The notes under the pieces are model-generated. The model ran no database searches and was not told the DNA's origin. It saw only the letters and a list, made by a program, of their open reading frames with translations. From positions 4,895-68,894 of the forward strand of contig CAYRHW010000003.1 in NCBI GenBank assembly GCA_964424305.1: DNA of 64,000 nucleotides. Reading direction: 5' to 3'. A program made the position numbers and the translations under genes. This document shows, piece after piece, positions 7,846 through 34,369 of the stretch (position 1 is the first letter of the stretch; every line of letters begins with the position of its first letter). Source of the stretch: an uncultured Candidatus Saccharibacteria bacterium (lineage in GTDB: Bacteria > Patescibacteriota > Minisyncoccia > Minisyncoccales > Staskawiczbacteraceae).

Positions 7846-8625
7846 TCAGCTGTTAATGGTGTTGATGGTTGCATCAATTTCATAGCCAAGTTTTACTTTC
7901 CTGGCGATGATGCTAATGCGGAACCTACCAACATTTTTAATGCCGATTTCTATAACCCCTGCGGCCGGGGCATATTCGTAATTAAGGGCAATTCCTGCCA
8001 TAACGAATAATTCGTTGATCACTTTGGCAGAAATATTTGCCGGAATGCGTAAATCCCGCGACTCTTTACAATCAATGGTGAAAATATGCCCCTGATCATC
8101 CGGGCGGATCTTGAATCCCTTTGCGTCAAGGTTGAAGACCATAGCGATGGCATCGTTAAGCCACGCGGTCGATTGATCTCTTTCGGAATCTGGTCTCCCG
8201 ATAGGAAGTCCCGTGGCCCAAACACCAACATCCCCACGCTTCTTCTTTTTCCAAAGCCACACTTCCCCATCACCCAATCGCATTACCACTGCCTTTACCC
8301 TGTTGTTATACACAAAACGAATCAAGGCTGCCTCAATCTCTGCGGTGCTATCGCTTGGTTGCAGTACCTCTGCCACTTTGAACTGAGGCGGAATTTCTAT
8401 CGCCGTTACTTCGCCTTGCTGGATGTATGCAACGAATACTTCGGTGCCCCACCAGAGGACAACATCACCGAAAGAAATCTCAGTATGAAAAGGTACACCT
8501 TTATCGGATGCCAGTTTATGGTCGTTAGCCCAAATAGCTCTTAAAAAGCTGACAATCTCCATTCTCCAGCGAAATGTTGCCCATTTGCCTGGAGAAATTC
8601 CCTGCAGAAAGAAAGCTTCAATCAT
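7846..8625 (-). CDS. Hypothetical protein, 259 aa (start re-called; the track ORF used TTG at 8667)
   Basis: The ATG at 8625 is preceded by GGAAGGAG. It has its own promoter and terminator. GC is elevated (31/60 in line 8101-8160). No motif recognised. Confidence 0.6.
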   Translation of the reverse strand: MIEAFFLQGISPGKWATFRWRMEIVSFLRAIWANDHKLASDKGVPFHTEISFGDVVLWWGTEVFVAYIQQGEVTAIEIPPQFKVAEVLQPSDSTAEIEAALIRFVYNNRVKAVVMRLGDGEVWLWKKKKRGDVGVWATGLPIGRPDSERDQSTAWLNDAIAMVFNLDAKGFKIRPDDQGHIFTIDCKESRDLRIPANISAKVINELFVMAGIALNYEYAPAAGVIEIGIKNVGRFRISIIARKVKLGYEIDATINTINS

Positions 8626-8694
8626 ATCTCTTCTCCTTCCTTGGTAGATATTTCTGTCATTTCGCAATTATTTTTATTTAAAACGGCTGATACC

Positions 8695-9204: not shown

Positions 9205-9690
9205 TTACCACGACCCATTTGTGAACGACATGCCCCCATTTTCAAAATTCATTACTATTAATTGAAAAGTTTTTGCCGCTTTATCAACTGTAAACCAATA
9301 ACAATAATTGCTGTTTAGATTATTTATCGGATCGACTGGAACCGAGGACATATATACGTAATTATTTGAATTAATAGTTGGATACCCAGGCGGAGTCCCC
9401 TTTAGGAAAACCATAAACCCTCCCGTGCAGCTGAGATCAACGGTCCCGCCAACGCCGTAATCCCCACCCCCGTAATCTATCGGGGCAGGGAGAGAACCAT
9501 AATCTGCGATATACATTTGCAGTGCCTTATTTATACTATTCGCATCCATCTTCCTCACTGAATCTCTAGCACTCGCCCTAGCCTTCGAAACAGAAACCGC
9601 AATGATAGAAGATAAAATTCCGATAATAGCTATTACAACTAATAGTTCTATCAGAGTAAAACCTCTTTGTTCCCGGGTATTTTTAATCAT
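9205..9690 (-). CDS. Type IV pilin / pseudopilin (prepilin-type N-terminal cleavage/methylation domain)
   Basis: RGFTLIELLVVIAIIGILSSI is the class III signal peptide with the G|F cleavage site and Glu+5. Confidence 0.9.
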   Translation of the reverse strand: MIKNTREQRGFTLIELLVVIAIIGILSSIIAVSVSKARASARDSVRKMDANSINKALQMYIADYGSLPAPIDYGGGDYGVGGTVDLSCTGGFMVFLKGTPPGYPTINSNNYVYMSSVPVDPINNLNSNYCYWFTVDKAAKTFQLIVMNFENGGMSFTNGSW

Positions 9691-9796: not shown

Positions 9797-10207
9797 CTAT
9801 TGTGTAACTGTTATTTTCCCCAACATTGATGGGTGTATGGCACACGAATAGTTGTATTCACCCACGGTAGAAAAATCAAATTGAAAACTTTCGCCAGTGC
9901 TTAAAACCGCAGAGTTGAAAACGGCGGATTTAATTTGGTGAGGTACAGAATCTTTATTCGTCCACGACACAGTATCTCCCTTTTTTATAGTTAAAGCCGA
10001 TGGAGAAAAAGCAAAATTCTTTATTTCTATTTTATAAAACTTTCCGCCTGTCTCCGGGTTAATGGGCGGATTATCATTTGGGTTAGTAACTGAGTTTTCC
10101 CCGGCCGGAGCTTTTGTGTTGTACGTTGACCCATTGTATATATAGTACCCTCCAACCAAAATGATTAATATGATAACGATGATTGAAATTAAAATTGTTT
10201 TATTCAT
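9797..10207 (-). CDS. Membrane-anchored cupredoxin (type 1 blue-copper, plastocyanin/amicyanin-like)
   Basis: N-terminal TM segment. Candidate Cu ligands are His in SVPHQIKS and C-x2-H-x2-M in YSCAIHPSMLGKI. Confidence 0.75.
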   Translation of the reverse strand: MNKTILISIIVIILIILVGGYYIYNGSTYNTKAPAGENSVTNPNDNPPINPETGGKFYKIEIKNFAFSPSALTIKKGDTVSWTNKDSVPHQIKSAVFNSAVLSTGESFQFDFSTVGEYNYSCAIHPSMLGKITVTQ

Positions 10208-10751: not shown

Positions 10752-10920
10752 ATTTCTTACTTTAATTATATTAATCCATTATACAACCAAAGGGCCGTTG
10801 TTGAAACGGCTTCCGGATAAAACGTGGGTGGCTAGACGATTTCCGAACCTATGAGTGAGAACGATGATTCCCCGACCCTGAGTCAACGGTTGAAAAGATT
10901 AAACAATTATTGGTTTTGGT

Positions 10921-10961
10921 TTAAAATAAAAGCCCCGTTCGCTTGTGAGCTACTAGGGGCT
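10921..10961 (-). terminator. Rho-independent terminator of the rSAM-peptide operon
   Basis: The minus strand reads AGCCCC-loop-GGGGCT followed by TTTTATTTT, starting 12 nt after the peptide stop codon. Confidence 0.7.
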
Positions 10962-10973
10962 ACGATGGAACGG

Positions 10974-11138
10974 CTAATCGCCGTCGCCGCCGCACGACCC
11001 ATCGCCATGGCAACCGTCGCCGCTGGAAGAACTGCAACCTTCGCAGTCACTGACGCCGCTATTGCGTCTCAACGGCCTGTTCCAGTGGGCATAACGCGCC
11101 TTGATGAGGGCCAGCTTGATTCTGAGGGTCTTTTTCAT
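10974..11138 (-). CDS. Candidate RiPP precursor peptide, 54 aa: basic leader plus acidic 4-Cys Gly/Ser/Asp-rich core
   Basis: My codon-by-codon translation gives MKKTLRIKLALIKARYAHWNRPLRRNSGVSDCEGCSSSSGDGCHGDGSCGGDGD*. The SD AGGAGGTG lies 6 nt upstream, the gene starts 31 nt after the rSAM stop on the same strand, and a terminator follows. Confidence 0.7.
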   Translation of the reverse strand: MKKTLRIKLALIKARYAHWNRPLRRNSGVSDCEGCSSSSGDGCHGDGSCGGDGD

Positions 11139-11144
11139 GGTAAT

Positions 11145-11152
11145 CACCTCCT
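11145..11152 (-). promoter_or_regulatory. Shine-Dalgarno site of the peptide gene
   Basis: AGGAGGTG on the minus strand, with a 6-nt spacer to the ATG at 11138. Confidence 0.7.
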
Positions 11153-11169
11153 TTCACCCTATCGAGAGG

Positions 11170-12255
11170 TTAATGTGCCGACAATACTCGCCAACACTGA
11201 GGATCAGGCGCAAAGAAATTGCCACCCGAAGCTCCGAATGACACGGCTGGACAACCACGACAATAGCACAGAAGCGGGCACTTAGAGCATGCCTCAAACT
11301 TGGCGATGTCGCGGTACTGGTCCATTCTTTCGGATGTAAAGATTTCCAAGATACTTTGATCGGGCACCTTGCCGATTGGACTATTAAATCGTCTACAGGC
11401 AAATACTGTGCCGTCGGCCAGGATGGCTACATCCCTTGCGCCGATATGGCATCCTGAGACTACCTGGCCGTCGGGATTGACCGACGGATGGAATTTCCCC
11501 TGCTCGTACATGAGAAGCGTCCACAAATGATCCTTGAGAGTAAAGGTGGTTTTCGAACCCTTTGCTTTGAGCTCGGCAACCAAGTCCTGGACTCGCAACA
11601 AAAGATCTCTATACCCCAGAGGGGTTAACATCGCTTCTGCTGGTGAAATCTTAGCAGCGATTCCTGGGCTACTAGACAGCCGTGCGAAAGCAAAGGCGCC
11701 CACGCCCAATTTGTCTACCAACCTCATCGCGTCGAGGAGATCCCCACTGTTTTTCTTGCTAAGGGTGTACATCACCACCGCTCTCATCTTACATTCGACG
11801 AGGAGCTTGATGGCGGCAACTGTCGCAGAAAAACTTCCGGATTTCCTCAGGGAATTGTGCATCTCCTCCATTCCGTCGAGACTCACCTGGTAGCTGACAA
11901 CCCCGAGACTCTTCATCTTGGCGATGTTATCGGCGGTAAGGTGGAATGGATTTCCCATGACACACAGCTTAATGCCTCGACTCGATGCGTACTCCAGAAT
12001 CTCGAAAAAATCGGAACGCAAGAGGGGGTCTCCGCCGGTGAAATTGATCTTGGGATTCGCCCCTGCTGTTTCACAAAAATCAACGAAGGAATCGATCACT
12101 GCCTTGCAGCTGTCTAGAGAAAGCTCTTCTGCAAGCTCACGTCTATATGAAACCGGGTCGTTAACCATGTAACAGTGCAGACACGACTGATCGCAGTGAG
12201 CAGTAATGTGCCATTGGATCACGAAAAGTGGCAATTTATCCTTATCGCGTGTCAT
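11170..12255 (-). CDS. Radical SAM enzyme with C-terminal SPASM (twitch/auxiliary Fe-S) domain; putative peptide-modifying maturase
   Basis: CX3CX2C at residues 21/25/28 (CDQSCLHC) and the GGDPLL SAM motif. SPASM-like elements are CHIGARDVAILADGTVFAC (CX12GX4C), CSKCPLLCYCRGC and DPQCW. There is no N-terminal RRE-sized extension. Confidence 0.85.
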   Translation of the reverse strand: MTRDKDKLPLFVIQWHITAHCDQSCLHCYMVNDPVSYRRELAEELSLDSCKAVIDSFVDFCETAGANPKINFTGGDPLLRSDFFEILEYASSRGIKLCVMGNPFHLTADNIAKMKSLGVVSYQVSLDGMEEMHNSLRKSGSFSATVAAIKLLVECKMRAVVMYTLSKKNSGDLLDAMRLVDKLGVGAFAFARLSSSPGIAAKISPAEAMLTPLGYRDLLLRVQDLVAELKAKGSKTTFTLKDHLWTLLMYEQGKFHPSVNPDGQVVSGCHIGARDVAILADGTVFACRRFNSPIGKVPDQSILEIFTSERMDQYRDIAKFEACSKCPLLCYCRGCPAVSFGASGGNFFAPDPQCWRVLSAH

Positions 12256-12456
12256 TTTGGGTCCTTTCTTCGTGTTAAAGAACTGTTCATCTGTTCTAAA
12301 CTGGGACTCTCTGGCTTCCGCTTAAGGTTAACCTTTTGCCGGGGCTTGTCAACGAAAGGGCTGTTTTTTATCGATTTAGACGTGAATGTATTGAATTTGA
12401 CTCTATTTACGGCTATGATATAGTATAAATAATCCGCCATTTTTGGCGACAAAATT

Positions 12457-13200
12457 ATGATTTACGATAAATTACAAAAAATTGGTCTTTCGGAAAGAGA
12501 GGCGAAAATCTACGCTGCCCTTCTAGAATTAGGGGAAACTAGCATCCAAAGAGTTTCCAAAAAGTCTAAAATTAAGAGGACAACCATTTATAATATAATC
12601 GATACCCTAAAAGAAAAGGGGTTAGTCTCCGTTATCTTTAAGAAAAAAAGGAAGTATTATGTTGCCTCTGATCCCAGAGATTTAGAGCTAAAGCTAGATC
12701 AGCAAAGGAGTATTTTAAAAAATATTCTGCCAGAACTTTTATCAATTTCTAACCTCATTGATAAAAAACCTAAGATAAGGTTTTTTGATGGCATTGAAGG
12801 CATTAAAGAAATATATCTAGACACTCTCAAATATGTAGGGCAACCGCTTTGGGCTTGGGTGACAGACGAAGTGTTCGATGACCTTGATAAAGAATTTGCT
12901 GAATATTACGTTTCTAAACGAGCAGAAAATAAAATTATGGCTTATGTTATAGCTCCGGATACACAAAAAATTAAAAACTATAAAGCCGGAGACATGAAAT
13001 CTCTAAGACAGACAAGAATTGACCCAGAAAGCTCTAACATCGAAGTTGAAATGGATATATATGGAAATAATAAAGTGGCCATAATGTCCTTTGGAGAAGG
13101 CTTTGGCCTTATTGTCGAAAGCAAAAAAATTTACAATACCTTAAAGAGTATCTTTGATATTTCGTGGAAAAATTTGGGACACGGTTATCAACAATTATAG
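12457..13200 (+). CDS. TrmB-family transcriptional regulator (winged HTH plus C-terminal effector-like domain)
   Basis: The N-terminal LQKIGLSEREAKIYAALLELGETSIQRVSKKSKIKRTTIYNIIDTLKEKGLV is the TrmB HTH signature. It is the only plus-strand protein gene and is divergent from the rSAM gene. Confidence 0.8.
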   Translation: MIYDKLQKIGLSEREAKIYAALLELGETSIQRVSKKSKIKRTTIYNIIDTLKEKGLVSVIFKKKRKYYVASDPRDLELKLDQQRSILKNILPELLSISNLIDKKPKIRFFDGIEGIKEIYLDTLKYVGQPLWAWVTDEVFDDLDKEFAEYYVSKRAENKIMAYVIAPDTQKIKNYKAGDMKSLRQTRIDPESSNIEVEMDIYGNNKVAIMSFGEGFGLIVESKKIYNTLKSIFDISWKNLGHGYQQL

Positions 13201-13747: not shown

Positions 13748-14980
13748 TTATTCATACCTTAGGGCTTCTATCGGATTTAACCTAGCTGCCCGTCTTGCTG
13801 GATAATATCCAAAGATTACTCCGATTACCACAGAAACCCCGACCGCAAGAAGCACTGTGGAGAAAGAAACTTTTGTCTGCATTAATCCAAAATATGTAAT
13901 TCCGAATGCTATCATCCATCCTAAAAATACCCCAACTAGTCCACCGATGAAAGTTAGCATCATTGCTTCAACAAGAAATTGGAAGCTAATATCTTTCCTT
14001 TTTGCACCAATGGCTTTTCGTAATCCTATCTCTCTTGTCCGCTCAGTAACCGTTGTAAGCATCATATTCATAATTCCGATTCCTCCAACAACTAAAGAAA
14101 TTCCGGCTATTGCAGCAAGTAATAACGTAAGAGTATTTGTGATACTAGAGGCACTAGCTAATATATCAGACTGATTCTGGACAGTAAAATCCGCTGCAGT
14201 TGGATCAGAAATTTTATGGCGAGTTAATAATAACTCTGTTATCTGTTCTTGAACGCTATCCATTGAACTCGCGTCAACCGCCTGGACATTAATAGTTGAA
14301 AGGTAGGCGCTACCAGCAAGAAACTTTTGAGCAGTAGTTAAGGGAACGTATATTATATCATCCTGATTGTTAAAACCACTTCCGCCTTTTGTTTTTGTAA
14401 CACCGATAACTTTAAATTGCATACCGTTTATCCGTATTATTTGGCCCATTACACTACTCGAGTCAACGTCAACACCAAATAAATCATCTTTAGTTGTCGG
14501 GCCTAATACCGCTACCTTAGACAAGTTTTGGATATTTTGCTCAGTTATAAATACTCCTTGGTCGGTGTCTACATTTTTGACTATGCTATAGGAGGGAGTA
14601 ACCCCCGCTATCGATGTATTGGTGTTTGCGCCCTTACCCACCACTTGGTATCTGCTAGAGAGAACGGGAGCTATATCTTTTATGGATGTTACTTCATTAG
14701 CAATCGCATTAGAGTCTTCTTGGGTTAAAGTTTGCGCAACCCCCCTCCCGCCCCCAACTCCATAGCCGAAGCTTCTCTGGCTTCCGGGGGAAACCATAAT
14801 GAGATTTGACCCCATTGATTCTATATTCGACTGAACAGATCCTTGTGCCCCTTGGCCGATGGATACCATAGCAATTACAGAACTAATACCGATTACTATA
14901 CCAAGAATCGTAAGGCTAGACCTTACCTTATTCGCAGAAAGGGCAATATATGTTTCTTGTAGTGTGTCCCCTATTTTCAT
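13748..14980 (-). CDS. ABC transporter permease, MacB/FtsX-type with large extracytoplasmic domain
   Basis: TM1, then an extracytoplasmic domain of about 230 aa, then 3 TM. The C-terminal YYPARRAARLNPIEALRYE is the FtsX-family signature. Confidence 0.9.
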   Translation of the reverse strand: MKIGDTLQETYIALSANKVRSSLTILGIVIGISSVIAMVSIGQGAQGSVQSNIESMGSNLIMVSPGSQRSFGYGVGGGRGVAQTLTQEDSNAIANEVTSIKDIAPVLSSRYQVVGKGANTNTSIAGVTPSYSIVKNVDTDQGVFITEQNIQNLSKVAVLGPTTKDDLFGVDVDSSSVMGQIIRINGMQFKVIGVTKTKGGSGFNNQDDIIYVPLTTAQKFLAGSAYLSTINVQAVDASSMDSVQEQITELLLTRHKISDPTAADFTVQNQSDILASASSITNTLTLLLAAIAGISLVVGGIGIMNMMLTTVTERTREIGLRKAIGAKRKDISFQFLVEAMMLTFIGGLVGVFLGWMIAFGITYFGLMQTKVSFSTVLLAVGVSVVIGVIFGYYPARRAARLNPIEALRYE

Positions 14981-15660
14981 TATTTTTTTGTATCGCTGAC
15001 CATAAGGCCATCCTTAAGTTGAATAATTCTCTGGGCGTGTTCTGCAACATCATGCTCATGAGTGATTAATATGATTGTCCGTCCCTGCTCAACATTAAGC
15101 CTTCTGAATGTCTCTAAAACAATTTCTCCTGTTTTTGTATCAAGATTACCAGTTGGCTCATCGGCTAAAATTAATGTCGGGTTATTTACTAAGGCACGGG
15201 CGATGGCAACGCGCTGGATCTGCCCACCAGAAAGCTGGTTTGACTTGTGGTCAAAAAATTCTGCATCCAAGCCGGTTGCTTTTAAGGCTTCTCTAGCTCT
15301 TTCCTCGCGTTCCTCTCCTTTAACTCCGGCGTAAACAAGGGGCAGCATAGTGTTTCTTAAAACAGTTGTCCGCGGGAGAAGATTAAACGATTGGAATACA
15401 AACCCTATCTTATTTTTCCTAATATCGGTAAGCTCGTCATCATTAAGCTTCGACACATCCTTGCCATCAAGAAAATATGTCCCGCTTGTGGACGTATCTA
15501 GAGCTCCAAGAATGTGCATCAAAGTGGACTTACCAGATCCCGAGGGCCCCATTATTGCAACGAACTCTCCATCTTCTATTCTGAAACTAACCCCAGACAA
15601 AGCTTGAAACTCCATGTCACCAGTTTTATACACCTTTGTGATATTTTTAACTTCAATCAT
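14980..15660 (-). CDS. ABC transporter ATP-binding protein (MacB/LolD-type)
   Basis: Walker [10 protein letters not shown], signature [15 protein letters not shown] and Walker [12 protein letters not shown]. Start and stop overlap with the neighbouring genes. Confidence 0.95.
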
Positions 15661-17325
15661 TTAATTGGGGCGTCCTCCTCCCATATTAAGAATATTCGCA
15701 TTTGTTCCAGTTGTAGCTTTTTTGACTGTCCCTGTGGTTGTTTTTACAACCACCTGGTCTCCTTCTTTAACCCCGCTAATAATTTCTGTTTGATTATCAT
15801 CAGAGATGCCAACTTCAACTGTAACTTTATTGGGCGCTACGGCAGAAGCGACTGCTTGACCAATCTGGTTATCTGAAAACTTTTCTCCAAATACCTCAAC
15901 GTAATATGCACCTCCTTGAGATTTCACCGCGCTGTTTGATAATACCAACACGTTTTGCTTGCTATCTGTGATGATTGCGACAGAAACGCTCATTCCTGGC
16001 TTTATCCTGTCATCTTGAGTATCAAAATTAATTTTTACAATATACGAAACTACGCCCTGTGATACGGTTCCGACTGCGTCGATATATATAACCTTACCAG
16101 TAAGGGTAAGATCTGAAATTGCGTCAAACGTAATTGTTGTTTTCTGACCAATCTTTACTTTCGCCGCATCTATTTCGTTTAGTGATATTTCAGCGACAGC
16201 TTCTTTCGTAATAATTTTTGCTATAGCAGTCCCAGTTGAAACTGAATCCCCATTTTTTGAATTAACTGCAGAAATTATCCCATTGAATGGAGAGTAGACA
16301 AAACAATAGGAAAGATTTGTCTTTGCGTCATCAAGCGCTGTTTGTTTTGTCGTTACAAGGGCCTCCTGATCAGTAATCGTATAGTCAGTGTTAATAAGGC
16401 TTTCTTTATCTGCTTCCAGGGTATTTTTTATTGAAAGCAGTGAAGAAAAATAACTATTGGTTGTGTTTAAGTAGCTGTTTAAACTTGTTAAGTGAGTATT
16501 GGATGCTGCTTCGGGCGTTGTACCACGAACCGTGAGCTCATCTTGGTAAGATTGGATTAAATTTGTTGTATCTTTTATCGTTTGAGATATCTCTTCAACT
16601 GTGTCGTATGTTTGATCTATTAATGCCTCGATCGCCGAAGTACTCGAGGTTCTATTGGTTATTTTATAGTCGTTAAAGTTTTTTTCATAGGAAGTTCTAG
16701 CCAGTTGATAGCTATTGTAGGCATTATTTCTATATATAATATTGGTTTGAGTAGTATAGTAATCAATATTCCAAGAGCTTCTACTTAGCGTGTAATCAAA
16801 CAAAATACTTTGGAGGCCCGTCATTATGGTCGGAAGATTAATGAAAGCATTGGCTATTGTATTATAACCGCTAACATAATCGCTATTTAAGCTATCTTGG
16901 GCTTTTTCTTTAACACCCCTTAGCGTTCCCAAAGAAGTTTCAATCCCCTTCATCTTTTCTAGATCAAGGCTTGCTTGGTCCAGCGCCCTCTGCGCGTCAG
17001 TCACTGCCTGCTGAGCGTTTGAAGTATTAATTTTGGCTAACAATTGCCCCCTATAAACGGCTTGGCCCGCCACAATGGGAAGATATATTAAATCTCCGGA
17101 GATCTTAGGGCTGATGTTTAATTCGTTAGAAGCCGAAACTTGCCCACTACCAGTAACCGAGGAAACGATCGTTCCTTTTTCGACAATCCCTACCGTATAT
17201 CTGGTCTCTTGGCTGGTATTCGTTAGCGCCTTATACCCGTAGAAACCAACAATTAATACGACCAAAACAGCTGCTCCAGCAATGATTTTATGATTAACAA
17301 CAAATTTTCTAATTTTATTAAACAT
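15661..17325 (-). CDS. HlyD/MacA-family periplasmic adaptor with long coiled-coil insertion
   Basis: N-terminal TM. Lipoyl-like halves (GDLIYLPIVAGQAVYRGQLLAKI and SPFNGIISAVNSKNGDSV) flank a helical region of about 230 aa. Confidence 0.8.
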   Translation of the reverse strand: MFNKIRKFVVNHKIIAGAAVLVVLIVGFYGYKALTNTSQETRYTVGIVEKGTIVSSVTGSGQVSASNELNISPKISGDLIYLPIVAGQAVYRGQLLAKINTSNAQQAVTDAQRALDQASLDLEKMKGIETSLGTLRGVKEKAQDSLNSDYVSGYNTIANAFINLPTIMTGLQSILFDYTLSRSSWNIDYYTTQTNIIYRNNAYNSYQLARTSYEKNFNDYKITNRTSSTSAIEALIDQTYDTVEEISQTIKDTTNLIQSYQDELTVRGTTPEAASNTHLTSLNSYLNTTNSYFSSLLSIKNTLEADKESLINTDYTITDQEALVTTKQTALDDAKTNLSYCFVYSPFNGIISAVNSKNGDSVSTGTAIAKIITKEAVAEISLNEIDAAKVKIGQKTTITFDAISDLTLTGKVIYIDAVGTVSQGVVSYIVKINFDTQDDRIKPGMSVSVAIITDSKQNVLVLSNSAVKSQGGAYYVEVFGEKFSDNQIGQAVASAVAPNKVTVEVGISDDNQTEIISGVKEGDQVVVKTTTGTVKKATTGTNANILNMGGGRPN

Positions 17326-18919: not shown

Positions 18920-18997
18920 TGGCGCGGGTGACGGGATTTGAACCCGTGATCTGATCCGTGACAGGGATCCGAGGACTCCAGACTCCTCCACACCCGC
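18920..18997 (-). tRNA. tRNA-Asp (anticodon GTC), CCA encoded
   Basis: Hand-folded cloverleaf: acceptor GCGGGTG/CACCCGC, D stem GAGG/CCTC, anticodon arm GATCC-CTGTCAC-GGATC, T arm ACGGG-TTCAAAT-CCCGT, then GCCA. Confidence 0.9.
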
Positions 18998-19680: not shown

Positions 19681-19682
19681 AG

Positions 19683-19755
19683 TGCCGGCGACAGGGATCG
19701 GACCTGTGACCTTGCGCTTATGAAACGCATGCTACTACCACTGAGCTACGCCGGC
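19683..19755 (-). tRNA. tRNA with CAT anticodon (elongator Met or Ile2 type), no encoded CCA
   Basis: Acceptor GCCGGCG/CGCCGGC, anticodon arm TGCGT-TTCATAA-GCGCA, T arm ACAGG-TCCGATC-CCTGT. Position 55 is C, which is unusual. Confidence 0.75.
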
Positions 19756-19762
19756 TTACTTG

Positions 19763-19833
19763 TTGCGCCGCCCCGAATTGCACGGGGGCCCACAGCTTAT
19801 GAGACTGTTGAGGTACTACTCCTCCACGGCGCT
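19763..19833 (-). tRNA. Atypical tRNA-like gene with CAT anticodon (possible initiator-like or degenerate tRNA)
   Basis: Acceptor AGCGCCG/CGGCGCA (A1 opposite A72), D stem GAGG/CCTC, anticodon arm ACAGT-CTCATAA-GCTGT, T arm CCCCG-TGCAATT-CGGGG with a non-canonical loop. Confidence 0.5.
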
Positions 19834-25600: not shown

Positions 25601-25950
25601 TCCTAGTAAGCTAGACGATCGCTCTTTTTTAAAGAGAGGAAAGTCCGAACACCATCTCCGCTTTCCGCGGGATAAAATTGTAGCGGCTAACGGCCGTCCA
25701 CAGCAATGTGCGAGGTGCGAACAGAAACGGCTATGATCGAAAGATCTGGCATTCCAGCAATGGAATACTTCTACAGTAATGTAGGAATGAAACGGCTAAA
25801 TCCTTACAGGGCGCAAGAGCAAAGCAGAAATTCAGGTTAAATACATCTTGAATATCTGTTAAAAGTAGTTCGCCAGAGCCAGCAAGTAATTGCTAGCCCA
25901 GACAGATGATCGTCCCAGACAGAATTCGGCTTATCGGCTTGCTAGGACAT
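25601..25950 (+). ncRNA. rnpB: RNase P RNA, bacterial type A
   Basis: Conserved GAGGAAAGTCCG (P4 5' strand) and ACAGAATTCGGCTTATCGG (P4 3' strand). P1 pairs TCCTAGTAAGC with GCTTGCTAGGA. Confidence 0.95.
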
Positions 25951-31052: not shown

Positions 31053-32951
31053 TTAGAATTTTACCACTTCCCCCGGATTAATTACACCCCTTTTTGAGCC
31101 ATCATTGGAGACTTTCTCTGGGATTGGAACTGGCTCCTTCTCTACGACGGGGTTAGGGTTATTATTTATATTTTTCTTAGCAGGCTCTGGTTTATCATTT
31201 TCTTCGGCCAATGATTCTTTTATGGCCTTTCGCAGCTCCGAGACATCAACCTCTTTCCTCTTCACCTTATCTTTATCATGACTATCTCTGTGGGGAGAGA
31301 AAGAAACCACCTCCTGATGCATCGCTTCTCTCAAAGACACTGCCGGGGGTTTTATATCTTGCCTCACCTCCTGCTTTTCTACATGGGCTTCCGGACGAAC
31401 TTCAGACGTGATCTTTTCGGCAGTAGTAACTCCATCCTGCGGTTTCCCACTAGCAACAGGGGCCACTACTTCACTTCGAGGCTTCACTTTCTTCAAACAA
31501 TTTTTACAATATATTGGCCTACCCTTCTCTGGCTCAAAAATTACTTTAGTCTTCTTATTACACATGGAACAAACGGCATCGAAAAGATGCGATTGTTCCT
31601 GCCCCCCGAAGCCTCCCTGCATTACTGGCCTCGGTGTATTCCCCTGCGAAGTTGCAGATAATGTATGCTCTGCATTGTCTTCAAAGCCAGTCCAACGTTT
31701 TATCTTTTCCTCTACTATTTCTTTCCTTACTCCGTATCTCTCTCTACTTGCATTAATGATCTTTTCTCTGTTTGAAGTCTCTTCTGCTTTAATGGGAGGA
31801 AGGGTTTCTGCTGAAAACGGCCGGCCAGCAACTCCATCGATCATTAATTTTAAATATATATTGTATTTTGTAAGGCCAACCAAATCCGTGGCCATAAACT
31901 CTGGCTCAAATTCTCTTTCTAGAAAATCAGCATCCTCTGCACCAATTCTAAAAACCACCATTGTCCCCACATTACCAAATACTGCGTCCCTCACTTCCTC
32001 TTCCATTTGAGTGATATATTGATGTCCCAGCGTCAGGTTCAAACGATATTTTCTTGCCTCGGACAATATGGAGGCAAAGGATATAGTTGCAAAGTTCTGG
32101 AACTCATCGACGTAAAGATAGAAATCTTTTCTATCTTCTTCGGGGATATCAACCCGGGACATGGCGGCTAATTGCATTTTTGTAATTAACAAAGCTCCCA
32201 ATAATCTGGAATTATCCTCTCCGATCCTACCTTTCGATAGGTTGATTATTAATATCTTGCCCTCATCCATTATTTTCCTAATATCGAGAGTGGACTTTAC
32301 CTGCCCGATACTATTTCTGATCAAAGGATTGGAAACGAACTGCCCTACTTTATTCTGAATAGCGGCTGTTGCTTCAACCTCGTATTTCTGAGTATACCTG
32401 GCATATTCATTCACCCAGAAAGATTTAACAACTGGGTCAGTGATCTTTTCCACCACCTTTCCCCTATACTCTGGGTCAGCCAACATTCTGTTAACCCCAA
32501 GCAAAGTTGACTCTGGATATTCCAAAAGCGCCAAGATAGAGTTATTCAAAATATATTCCATACGGGCGGACCAAACATCAGGCCAAACTTTTTTGAAAAC
32601 AGCCATCAACCCACTAGCCACTAAATGCCTGAATCTGAAATCCACCTTTTCCATAACGTTAAAGGCGATTGGGAAATCAAGATCCGCTGGGTTGAAATAC
32701 ACAACATCATTTATTCTGCTAGAAGGAACGAAGTCCAACAAGCCCTCGGCAGCTTCTCCGTGGGGGTCGACGAATGCAATACCTCTTCCTTTTTGGATAT
32801 CCTGCCTGGCCATATTTTCCATTAGGACGGTTTTGCCCATACCAGTTTTCCCAATAACGTAAACGTGCCGACGTCTATCGTCGGGCTTTATACCAAATTT
32901 CTTCTCCTGGTTGCGAAAGGTTGTTTTCCCTAAAAATGTTATCTCTGCCAT
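31053..32951 (-). CDS. TraD/VirD4 (type IV coupling protein)-like P-loop ATPase with C-terminal zinc ribbon and low-complexity tail
   Basis: Walker A IGKTGMGKT and Walker B LYVDEFQNF. C-terminal CSMCNKKTKVIFEPEKGRPIYCKNC (CxxC...CxxC). Confidence 0.65.
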   Translation of the reverse strand: MAEITFLGKTTFRNQEKKFGIKPDDRRRHVYVIGKTGMGKTVLMENMARQDIQKGRGIAFVDPHGEAAEGLLDFVPSSRINDVVYFNPADLDFPIAFNVMEKVDFRFRHLVASGLMAVFKKVWPDVWSARMEYILNNSILALLEYPESTLLGVNRMLADPEYRGKVVEKITDPVVKSFWVNEYARYTQKYEVEATAAIQNKVGQFVSNPLIRNSIGQVKSTLDIRKIMDEGKILIINLSKGRIGEDNSRLLGALLITKMQLAAMSRVDIPEEDRKDFYLYVDEFQNFATISFASILSEARKYRLNLTLGHQYITQMEEEVRDAVFGNVGTMVVFRIGAEDADFLEREFEPEFMATDLVGLTKYNIYLKLMIDGVAGRPFSAETLPPIKAEETSNREKIINASRERYGVRKEIVEEKIKRWTGFEDNAEHTLSATSQGNTPRPVMQGGFGGQEQSHLFDAVCSMCNKKTKVIFEPEKGRPIYCKNCLKKVKPRSEVVAPVASGKPQDGVTTAEKITSEVRPEAHVEKQEVRQDIKPPAVSLREAMHQEVVSFSPHRDSHDKDKVKRKEVDVSELRKAIKESLAEENDKPEPAKKNINNNPNPVVEKEPVPIPEKVSNDGSKRGVINPGEVVKF

Positions 32952-32974: not shown

Positions 32975-34369
32975 TTACTCCATTGGTAAATTAGGCGGTG
33001 GTCCACCCTTCTTGGCCTCGACACGAACAACCGTAGAGGCTATTAAAGCTGTGATCCTCGTTGGGAAATGATACATTGTTGCCAACTCCTCACTGTTTAA
33101 TATGGAGCTTCCTGGCAAATCCCACCTTGGAAAAAACGGGGGGAATCTATTGATATAGTGCTCGAGCATTTTCCTTTGCCTGACAAGAAGCCTTTTCTTT
33201 CTCATAAAGAAGTGCACCTTTGTCCTCGTGTCGGCATTAAACTTAAAGTGATTCATATTCTGCGTATGGAAATGCGGCAAATAGGACTCAATGGTTTTTC
33301 TGTGGCCCGAATCCCACTTTTCTCTCTTGGCTATATACACTCCCCTTATGGTTGTCTTCCAGGCAGACTTTTCCATTTTTTCTTCTACGGCCATAAGAAC
33401 CCCTCTTTCTCCGGGGGTCAACAACATTTCCCTTTCATTGCTCTCTGTTTTTGTTTCCGATAAAGATTTTGCTGCTCCTTTCTCATCAGAGCCAGCCGAA
33501 CCAGTAAATCCAGCAAAAAGCTCTTTAAACATCTGGAACAATAAATCGATTAATGTTTCCTTTTTATCCTCCGGTCTTTTTGCAATCTGGCTAATTAATT
33601 TCTTCCCCTCTTCTCTCCACGGGAAATCATGATCTGAAATGGGGATAGTAACCATCTGAAACCAAAGTTGTTCTCCGGGCCCCAATCTTGCCATGCCCTC
33701 CAACAAAGAAACGATTGGGTCGATTCTTTTTTCTTCTTGAGAAATTTTTTCACCGCCTATTTCAAAAAACTTTGAGAAAGTTTTAATAGGATAAGCGTCT
33801 TCCTTGCCCAAGATAAATTCCGTACCATATATGTTCCACTCCTTATTGGGAATATTTTGAGGAACATTTTTTGTGTAATCTGAAACTTGTGTTATCTCCA
33901 CTTCTGGATAATGAGAGTACAATGCTGACTCGACAAGTGAGCGATGGCCGGACATACAGCGGATGTAGAAATGGATAGATCCCTCGACGCTGGCTACTTC
34001 CCAAGAAAGCCATTCTGGGCATGTTTCAAACTCTCCCTCACACCACCTTTCTCTCCAGTTGGCGGTATCAATGATTGTCCAAACAGCAGAGAACACATCT
34101 TCCATGGCCTTAAAAGGAGCCAGACTTTCCTTTGGGGGAACAAGTTCAAGAATTACCCATTTTTTCTTTTGATACCAAAAGTCCCACCTGATCCACCATA
34201 AATAGTAGGTCTCTAGTGGGAATACCAAAAGGATGGGGATTATTAGCCACCACCAGACATTAATTACGGGAATAAAAAAAACGGCAATCGATAAAATCAA
34301 CCACCAGAATGGGGTCCAAATTATTTTTCTGGGAACGTCCAGCCACCAAAAGAAAGACTTAGCATTCAT
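32975..34369 (-). CDS. Membrane protein, unknown function (partner of the T4CP-like ATPase)
   Basis: Trp-rich N-terminal TM hairpin and a large soluble domain. A 24-nt gap separates it from the ATPase gene. Confidence 0.5.
   Translation of the reverse strand: MNAKSFFWWLDVPRKIIWTPFWWLILSIAVFFIPVINVWWWLIIPILLVFPLETYYLWWIRWDFWYQKKKWVILELVPPKESLAPFKAMEDVFSAVWTIIDTANWRERWCEGEFETCPEWLSWEVASVEGSIHFYIRCMSGHRSLVESALYSHYPEVEITQVSDYTKNVPQNIPNKEWNIYGTEFILGKEDAYPIKTFSKFFEIGGEKISQEEKRIDPIVSLLEGMARLGPGEQLWFQMVTIPISDHDFPWREEGKKLISQIAKRPEDKKETLIDLLFQMFKELFAGFTGSAGSDEKGAAKSLSETKTESNEREMLLTPGERGVLMAVEEKMEKSAWKTTIRGVYIAKREKWDSGHRKTIESYLPHFHTQNMNHFKFNADTRTKVHFFMRKKRLLVRQRKMLEHYINRFPPFFPRWDLPGSSILNSEELATMYHFPTRITALIASTVVRVEAKKGGPPPNLPME

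Follow-up and report, generated by a model that had tools for sequence, protein, structure and literature searches.

Pairs of a short Cys-rich peptide and a radical S-adenosylmethionine (SAM)/SPASM enzyme that lacks the recognition element (RRE) of pathways for ribosomally made peptides with post-translational modifications (RiPPs) have been known bioinformatically from the neighbourhood of the ACGX and SbtM families for more than 10 years. The ACGX system, represented by the family models TIGR04340 and TIGR04341, was itself defined bioinformatically, and our literature searches found no paper pairing ACGX with radical SAM or SPASM. We know of no established chemistry for ACGX/SbtM-related enzymes other than that of SbtM. 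According to section 14 of PMC11002830, SbtM turns Cys or selenocysteine (Sec) into a thiooxazole or selenooxazole with the loss of four hydrogens, the thiooxazole having been confirmed by nuclear magnetic resonance (NMR) (Lewis et al. 2021). Peptides that carry 5-thiooxazoles, the bufferins and their relatives, are metallophores (PMC11626156, PMC12668002). Here, we describe a locus of this kind in a 64-kb stretch of contig CAYRHW010000003.1 (the window), where the gene for a 361-aa enzyme (11170..12255, minus strand) is followed on the same strand by a 54-aa Cys-rich open reading frame (ORF; 10974-11138). Comparison with relatives strongly supports a reading of the two genes as a predicted radical SAM/SPASM peptide maturase and its co-transcribed precursor, and we consider it probable that they form a self-contained RiPP-type cassette, acquired horizontally, in a Staskawiczbacteria-like genome of the candidate phyla radiation (CPR; Patescibacteria).

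All parts of a radical SAM/SPASM enzyme are present in the 361-aa protein, which carries no extension at its N-terminus, RRE or otherwise. Twenty residues precede the CX3CX2C motif for the SAM-binding 4Fe-4S cluster (C21-x3-C25-x2-C28), the GGDP SAM motif lies within FTGGDPLL (residues 72-79), and the SPASM Cys set consists of C269-x12-G282-x4-C287, C323-x2-C326-x5-C332-x2-C335 and C354 in DPQCW. In an alignment of 30 homologs, the CX3CX2C motif and all seven SPASM Cys residues are invariant, and the seven-Cys motif is the predicted site of two auxiliary 4Fe-4S clusters. Both domains exceed their Pfam gathering scores (Radical_SAM, PF04055, 64.3 bits vs 29.5; SPASM, PF13186, 42.7 bits vs 21.5), and the Pfam scan found no further domain and no RRE. 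The AlphaFold2 (AF2) model of the enzyme, with a predicted local distance difference test score (pLDDT) of 92.3, has its first strand at residue 10 and opens straight into the radical SAM barrel, which also argues that the enzyme is without an RRE. A preliminary description of the locus had reported the same motifs and the same lack of an RRE-sized extension, and had proposed that the two genes form a peptide-modification system; the first two statements are borne out, and the last is strongly supported by the comparative evidence given below.

The enzyme was assigned to a family using NCBIfam profile hidden Markov models (HMMs). The top match is TIGR04340 (radical SAM/SPASM protein, ACGX system), at 330.5 bits (E = 1e-98; cutoff 400), and enzyme residues 10-356 align to positions 2-339 of this 341-position model with no extra domains. 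The second match is TIGR04082, SbtM, at 215.6 bits (E = 1e-63; cutoff 350), where the alignment covers model positions 197-515 only. The remaining families all score at or below 127 bits. AhbD reaches 127.2 bits (cutoff 500) and the NirJ-type families 96-107 bits (NirJ, 96.4 bits; cutoff 515), so that a cofactor-maturation enzyme of the AhbD/NirJ kind, an alternative that the preliminary description had raised, is ruled out by scores far below the cutoffs. The mycofactocin maturase MftC scores 91.7 bits (cutoff 265), and the thioether maturases StsB (NF045574), SkfB (TIGR04403) and PapB (NF047865) score 79.7, 74 and 60.6 bits against cutoffs of 625, 300 and 340, respectively. QhpD is not among the best 25 families for the window enzyme. 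The kinship with sactipeptide, ranthipeptide and QhpD-type maturases that had been suggested for the locus therefore finds no support in these scores.

The TIGR04340 scores of related enzymes form a gradient: 471-588 bits for enzymes beside classical ACGX-repeat peptides, 413 bits for an intermediate type, and 316-373 bits for the window enzyme and its clade. Since the whole clade falls below the cutoff of 400, the window enzyme represents a sister subfamily just outside the curated family. A JGI annotation calls a 75%-identical homolog a 'radical SAM/SPASM domain protein of ACGX system'. In a neighbour-joining tree of 123 enzymes, the window enzyme and the ACGX enzymes share the same broad clade. 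Within it, the classical ACGX loci group in a large clade of their own, and the enzymes with a CHGDGxCGGDG peptide, the window's type, all map to another, single clade. By sequence, the window enzyme is no orphan and belongs to an extended ACGX/SbtM clade, whose related enzymes numbered 2,746 among the candidates scored and occur in hosts as diverse as gut Firmicutes, CPR bacteria and DPANN archaea.

The locus shares with the ACGX system an enzyme of ~340-360 aa that is matched over its full length, the absence of an RRE, and a two-gene unit whose short Cys-rich peptide is encoded on the strand of the enzyme gene. Unlike that system, the window enzyme stays below 400 bits, its peptide lacks ACGX repeats and lies downstream rather than upstream of the enzyme gene, and its leader type (..[RK]YxHWN..) differs from the ACGX leaders (MSENL..VAAF, MALSNVAEFAG). 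The hosts differ as well: gut Firmicutes, Coriobacteriia and Bacteroidales for ACGX, and CPR bacteria from environmental samples for the CHGDGxCGGDG type. The preliminary description had called the architecture unusually minimal; the lack of an RRE, protease and transporter is instead the norm for the TIGR04340-type family. A minimal layout is also the norm for SCIFF systems. SbtM resembles the window enzyme across the whole radical SAM and SPASM part and acts on Cys/Sec of a short ribosomal peptide. The SbtM precursors contain selenocysteine and a SECIS element, whereas the 54-codon ORF in the window contains no in-frame TGA.

The peptide ORF (MKKTLRIKLALIKARYAHWNRPLRRNSGVSDCEGCSSSSGDGCHGDGSCGGDGD) starts with an ATG at 11138 and stops with a TAG at 10976-10974. 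Alignments of relatives divide it into a basic leader (residues 1-30, MKKTLRIKLALIKARYAHWNRPLRRNSGVS; 11049..11138, minus strand; net charge +9) and an acidic core (residues 31-54, DCEGCSSSSGDGCHGDGSCGGDGD, with the stop codon; 10974..11048, minus strand; net charge −6). The conserved leader motif is K-L-x-x-I-K-A-[RK]-[YF]-x-[HY]-W-N, in which W19 is invariant across 14 enzyme-peptide pairs. The core motif, C-x(2-6)-C-H-G-D-G-x-C-G-G-D-G-[DE], stops exactly at the C-terminus. The peptide is present as a single copy within the window and has no signal peptide. An A-C-G-x repeat was not found in the core, and neither the window peptide nor those of its relatives match TIGR04341 at E <= 1 (cutoff 28 bits), a model that gave 57.9 bits for a classical ACGX peptide (MALSNVAEFAG...SACGSACGAGDK) used as a positive control.

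The small ORF could in principle be spurious, a chance reading frame in GC-rich DNA, or could encode an unmodified metal-binding mini-protein, with the enzyme acting on an unlinked substrate in the manner of anSME or AhbD. Gene callers skipped the ORF on every public contig of the source strain, it matches no Pfam or NCBIfam family, and a word-indexed search of the protein database, which returned 3 matches only, did not find the exact peptide. Comparative evidence that the ORF is a gene came from a survey of 80 genome and 80 metagenome loci with enzyme homologs, plus seven contigs of the closest relatives, in which small ORFs were called anew. While 21 of 123 homolog loci have no recognisable Cys-rich ORF, a small Cys-rich ORF adjoins the enzyme gene in the other 102. 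The CHGDGxCGGDG peptide itself recurs beside the enzyme in 11 independent sampled loci, in addition to the source strain's own contigs, with enzyme identities of 42-75%. Among close relatives (58-75% enzyme identity), a same-strand small ORF follows the enzyme gene immediately in all cases and carries the full core in seven of nine loci; in three more distant clade members (42-51%), the peptide ORF is immediately upstream of the enzyme gene. Over the last 22 codons, the closest full-length relatives (survey loci L166, L085 and L084) show 9-11 synonymous differences and 1 non-synonymous difference, which implies purifying selection on the peptide reading frame. The ORF is also preceded by a strong Shine-Dalgarno sequence at optimal spacing (AGGAGGTG, 11145-11152, 6 nt before the ATG).

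These sequence comparisons indicate that the 54-aa ORF is a real, conserved gene under purifying selection, with sequence, strand and adjacency retained across different genomic contexts, and they contradict a chance ORF. Both the survey of homolog neighbourhoods and the comparison of peptides among relatives, which the preliminary description had proposed, thus came out in favour of the gene. The case for an unlinked substrate draws on the structural comparison, in which the best Foldseek matches of the AF2 model are RRE-less or SPASM enzymes, led by anSME (PDB 4k37; TM-score 0.73) and ChlB (0.71), followed by SuiB, SkfB and PqqE. Parallels with anSME include the lack of an RRE, a length of ~370 aa, two auxiliary clusters, and an activity that oxidises the C-beta of Cys or Ser in a peptide substrate. 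The two enzymes are only ~15-16% identical, however, there is no sulfatase nearby, and a dedicated peptide gene is conserved beside the window enzyme; an anSME with an unlinked sulfatase is rejected for these last two reasons, and the AhbD/NirJ scores of 96-127 bits against cutoffs of at least 500 speak against that form of unlinked substrate. Taken as a whole, an explanation without a dedicated, modified peptide appears highly improbable.

An antisense Ala-rich ORF of 144 aa (10851-11285, plus strand) overlaps both the peptide gene and the 3'-terminal part of the enzyme gene, and is a called gene in one public annotation (L001). GC-rich Gly/Asp/Cys codons leave antisense frames open through their composition alone, and the 144-aa ORF is most likely an artefact of such codons read in reverse.

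An HMM built from four CHGDGxCGGDG-type peptides, searched against 1.84 billion representative proteins, retrieved 12 clusters. Most of these have both the leader and the core motifs, so that the peptide family is real but nearly unannotated. A linked precursor with leader and core, co-conserved with its enzyme and congruent with it in the tree, is the generic hallmark of a RiPP system, and this arrangement is found here.

The layout of the two genes points to a single transcription unit. The spacer between the enzyme TAA and the peptide ATG is 31 nt long (11139..11169, minus strand) and leaves no room for a promoter or terminator, from which we infer co-transcription. A probable intrinsic terminator (10923..10961, minus strand) begins 12 nt past the peptide stop, with a stem of AGCCCC/GGGGCU (10956-10961 and 10931-10936), an 18-nt loop and then UUUUAUUUU (10923-10930). 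DNA homology with the relatives L084, L085 and L086 extends to ~10920-10924, indicating that the hairpin is conserved as part of the cassette. The cassette promoter presumably lies in the divergent intergenic region (12256..12456) that is shared with a host gene for a TrmB-family regulator (12457-13200, plus strand).

Evidence for horizontal acquisition came from base composition and from the genomic contexts of relatives. The cassette has 51% GC and sits in an island of 47-53% GC (10780..12330) between flanks of 34-39%; no 1-kb bin of the window other than 11001-12000, at 52%, exceeds 43% GC. The GC content at third codon positions (GC3) is 0.569 for the enzyme gene and 0.727 for the peptide gene, compared with 0.358 +/- 0.047 for 30 host ORFs (z = 4.5). 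In six of seven contigs from close relatives, the cassette is likewise 4-9 GC points above its upstream flank, suggesting that horizontal transfer out of a source of higher GC has occurred repeatedly. The window and its relatives are similar at the DNA level only over 12233-10920, which comprises the enzyme, the peptide and the hairpin, and the neighbouring genes differ in each relative: MetK, MurJ and LepA in L164, ParB and DpnI in L166, and isochorismatase and ornithine decarboxylase in L167. Judged by sequence, the cassette is a compositionally foreign unit, horizontally acquired, that travels through unrelated genomic contexts. The preliminary description had spoken of an insert and had correctly placed the 54-aa ORF 31 nt past the enzyme stop, 6 nt past its Shine-Dalgarno sequence, and ahead of a hairpin followed by a T-run.

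No meaningful direct or inverted repeats (only short, chance-like ones), integrase or tRNA were found at the island borders, the nearest tRNAs being ~7 kb away. An empty site, a TrmB gene without the cassette, was not found either, as all five contigs with an identical TrmB protein carry the cassette. The host assignment is based on LepA, for which the best database proteins are 76-90% identical to the window protein; the named ones (76-78%) come from Patescibacteria and Staskawiczbacteria genomes, and this places the host within the Patescibacteria (CPR), near Candidatus Staskawiczbacteria.

On the mechanism that we propose, one mRNA would carry both genes and end at the hairpin. The enzyme would bind the basic, helical leader (..IKARYAHWN..) directly, without an RRE, and would cleave SAM at the C21/C25/C28 cluster. 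The resulting 5'-deoxyadenosyl radical would then abstract hydrogen at the conserved cysteines of the acidic core (D-C-..-C-H-G-D-G-x-C-G-G-D-G-D), with the two SPASM clusters handling electrons. As to the product, we tentatively suggest, by analogy with SbtM, a four-electron oxidation of core cysteines to 5-thiooxazoles. This outcome is favoured because, of the families whose chemistry has been demonstrated, SbtM is much the closest, and because the only feature common to the cores of the wider family is a Cys next to small residues, with no acidic acceptor in several of them (e.g., DCSCNCSSGCSACSSSCGSC, GCSGCMCGCSTCGSCN and VCSVCGCSNGCG). Together with the invariant His and Asp, thiooxazoles would yield a rigid, metal-chelating peptide.

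Several observations weigh against this account, with respect to both the cassette and its product. The hairpin is modest, with a 6-bp stem, a folding energy of −13.6 kcal/mol and z = −0.99 relative to shuffles, and would be a weak terminator; a consensus terminator scan missed it because its loop is long. A consensus scan also found no convincing promoter for the cassette, as the minus-strand sigma-70-like matches are weak: TCGCCA-16-TATACT (12449-12422), and a TTGACA (~12347-12352) without a good −10 hexamer. Two loci of Staskawiczbacteria relatives (GCA_026395215.1; L164:7083-7283 and L165:3411-3611) encode an intact enzyme, 72% identical to that of the window, and a peptide with the same leader, but their variant core retains a single Cys (..EGCSASSGDGDGDGNGGDD) and has lost the two C-terminal cysteines. 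Three of the 12 clusters from the peptide search (P0125, P0128 and P0129) are Cys-poor core variants too. Because the Staskawiczbacteria variant keeps an intact enzyme, the two C-terminal cysteines are not indispensable; the essential site is then the first core Cys, unless these systems are in decay. The thiooxazole assignment draws solely on a 216-bit HMM relationship to SbtM that lies below the 350-bit cutoff, and the N-terminal region of ~196 aa that SbtM possesses is absent from the window enzyme. Finally, the Cys/Asp pattern is no worse a fit to Cys-Asp thioethers, as in PapB/freyrasin, than to thiooxazoles. The Asp sits three residues after the Cys in CHGD and CGGD, classical ACGX repeats read C-G-x-x-D-P, and the Cys-Asp spacing in freyrasin is CxxxD.

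This pattern raises the alternative that the same enzyme and substrate produce intramolecular thioethers, either ranthipeptide-like, in which the Cys sulfur of C-H-G-D and C-G-G-D would be joined to the C-beta or C-gamma of Asp, or sactipeptide-like, in which it would be joined to a C-alpha, to give a small knotted peptide. The C-x-G-D spacing occurs twice in the core and is invariant, thioethers are the product of most characterised SPASM RiPP maturases that act on Cys-rich peptides, and SkfB is among the structural neighbours of the enzyme. As far as section 7 of PMC8326336 describes them, the Cys-to-Asp cross-links that PapB makes in freyrasin resemble the classical ACGX arrangement. The locus also resembles SCIFF and other ranthipeptide systems (CteB, PapB/freyrasin) in combining a short Cys-rich peptide with a radical SAM/SPASM enzyme, and its Cys...Asp spacing could provide donor and acceptor. 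It differs from them in its leader and core motifs and in its scores, since the thioether maturases fall far below SbtM (60.6-79.7 bits against 215.6) and CteB (5wgg) is matched at E = 7e-6 only. Thioether maturases normally have an N-terminal RRE, which both Pfam and the AF2 model indicate is missing here. Moreover, the lack of any acidic residue in several sister-clade cores implies that Asp is not a universal acceptor, if the chemistry is common to the family. Thioether formation is the main competing outcome, possible though doubtful, and about as probable as the formation of thiooxazoles.

Turning to the physiological role of the product, the core is nearly invariant, no protease, exporter or immunity gene is linked to the cassette, and the peptide has no signal peptide, all of which favours a conserved function, such as metal handling, redox or a cofactor-like role, rather than that of an antibiotic under arms-race selection. 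SCIFF peptides raise the same argument against an antibiotic role. SCIFF is described in section 7 of PMC8326336 as a minimal combination of enzyme and peptide in which the core is conserved and an antibiotic role is not obvious. A related alternative is that the peptide serves as the scaffold for a small peptide-derived cofactor or a redox or metal centre, as PqqA does for PqqE and MftA for MftC, in which case the C-terminal residues would matter and unlinked host enzymes would finish the processing. The extreme conservation of a C-terminal motif that ends exactly at the stop, across 42-75% enzyme identity, is consistent with such a scaffold, as are the minimal two-gene unit without exporter, protease or immunity gene, the presence of PqqE among the structural neighbours, and the mycofactocin maturase score. 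Clustering of the genes neighbouring CHGDGxCGGDG-peptide loci, however, found no clade-conserved protease, transporter or other partner gene, and in particular no conserved peptidase, oxidoreductase or client enzyme. The scores for the PQQ and mycofactocin families are far below their cutoffs, and, judging by the Cys-poor variants, large changes to the core are tolerated. We regard a cofactor scaffold as improbable.

Returning to the thiooxazole proposal, its most far-reaching version is that the CHGDGxCGGDG peptides are precursors of a conserved, probably intracellular, metal-binding or redox peptide cofactor. Such a product would be a thiooxazole-rigidified Cys3-His-Asp chelator, made by a self-sufficient two-gene module that is exchanged horizontally among reduced-genome CPR/Patescibacteria, with the RRE-less enzyme reading the [RK]-[YF]-x-[HY]-W leader motif. 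We put this forward as speculation that, in all its parts together, is unlikely to be correct.

A leader element of a similar kind is found across much of the wider enzyme family. Most of its non-ACGX precursors have an aromatic-x-aromatic-Trp motif in the leader (ARYAYW, ERFAFW, SRYQFW, SRYEFW and SRYAAW, and also NYWN and NFW; e.g., L011, L088, L091, L097, L100, L101, L118 and L121), and this motif is missing from classical ACGX leaders. To judge from these sequences, it may be a recognition element for RRE-less enzymes. The wider family also includes 20 loci with a gene for a TehB-like SAM-dependent methyltransferase near the radical SAM gene, mostly 50-150 nt downstream on the same strand (e.g., L011:5143-5748; the others are L005, L006, L016, L019, L020, L023, L025, L026, L035, L036, L037, L039, L041, L058, L065, L081, L092, L100 and L121). 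The Cys-rich peptides of these loci are of neither the classical ACGX nor the CHGDGxCGGDG type, and they are found in Saccharibacteria and other CPR bacteria, in Micrarchaeota and in Clostridia, among other hosts. This arrangement suggests a three-gene variant with a methylation step. The TehB-like methyltransferase is absent from the window enzyme's clade; like HxlR, nitroreductase and PNPOx, it is a neighbour of other enzyme subclades. In one of the Staskawiczbacteria relatives (L164), the SAM synthetase gene (MetK) is directly upstream of the radical SAM gene.

Other features of the window lie around the cassette or at a distance from it. Past the conserved end of the cassette, ~140 nt of GC-rich DNA (10780-10920, minus strand) is shared with no relative and holds a second hairpin (10794-10810); this stretch may have been left over from the donor. 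It is followed at ~10772-10784 by a TGnTATAAT-like promoter that would serve the next host gene. Just downstream of the cassette are genes for a membrane-anchored cupredoxin of the plastocyanin/amicyanin type and a type IV pilin-like protein (9797-10207 and 9205-9690, both minus strand). The cupredoxin neighbour is suggestive if the peptide binds metal, although elsewhere the cassette does not have it as a conserved neighbour. As for export, the sole candidate nearby is a MacB-type ABC system with host-like GC (13748-17325, minus strand), consisting of a permease (MacB_PCD, FtsX), an ATPase and an HlyD-like adaptor. It lies 1.5 kb from the cassette, with the divergent TrmB regulator gene between them, and its proximity is probably coincidental because it is not conserved beside the cassette in relatives.

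A second compositional outlier is a 273-aa ORF at 7846-8667 (minus strand; 47-50% GC; GC3 0.467) that matches no Pfam or NCBIfam family and may be another foreign gene. Further away, a type IV coupling protein that resembles VirD4/TraD and contains a CxxC-x17-CxxC zinc-finger domain (31053-32951, minus strand) adjoins an ORF at 32975-34369 (minus strand) that is also a GC3 outlier (0.458), and the two may be part of a conjugative or DNA-uptake element. The window also contains a bacterial class A RNase P RNA (25603-25949, plus strand), and a tRNA-Asp and two tRNA-Met genes at 18920-18997 and 19682-19833 (minus strand), all of them ordinary RNAs of the housekeeping kind.

As a system, the locus does not found a new class, and close homologs already receive the label 'ACGX system' from automated pipelines. 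What is new is the precursor family, which has no model and almost no database entries, together with a dedicated enzyme subclade below the family cutoff, an inverted gene order, and the occurrence of the cassette as a horizontally transferred island in CPR genomes. The near-invariant Cys/His/Asp core and the horizontal spread of the cassette suggest that its function, which may be metal handling, is under selection in the recipient. If the metal-binding proposal were true, the peptide would act as a physiological 'mini-cofactor', not as an antibiotic, and its leader motif would be one common to much of the wider family. With two genes in ~1.3 kb, the cassette defines a compact, strongly conserved sub-family and offers a tractable target for establishing what the family does. 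In CPR bacteria, which otherwise have a minimal metabolism, there are few other candidate modules for a natural product or cofactor.

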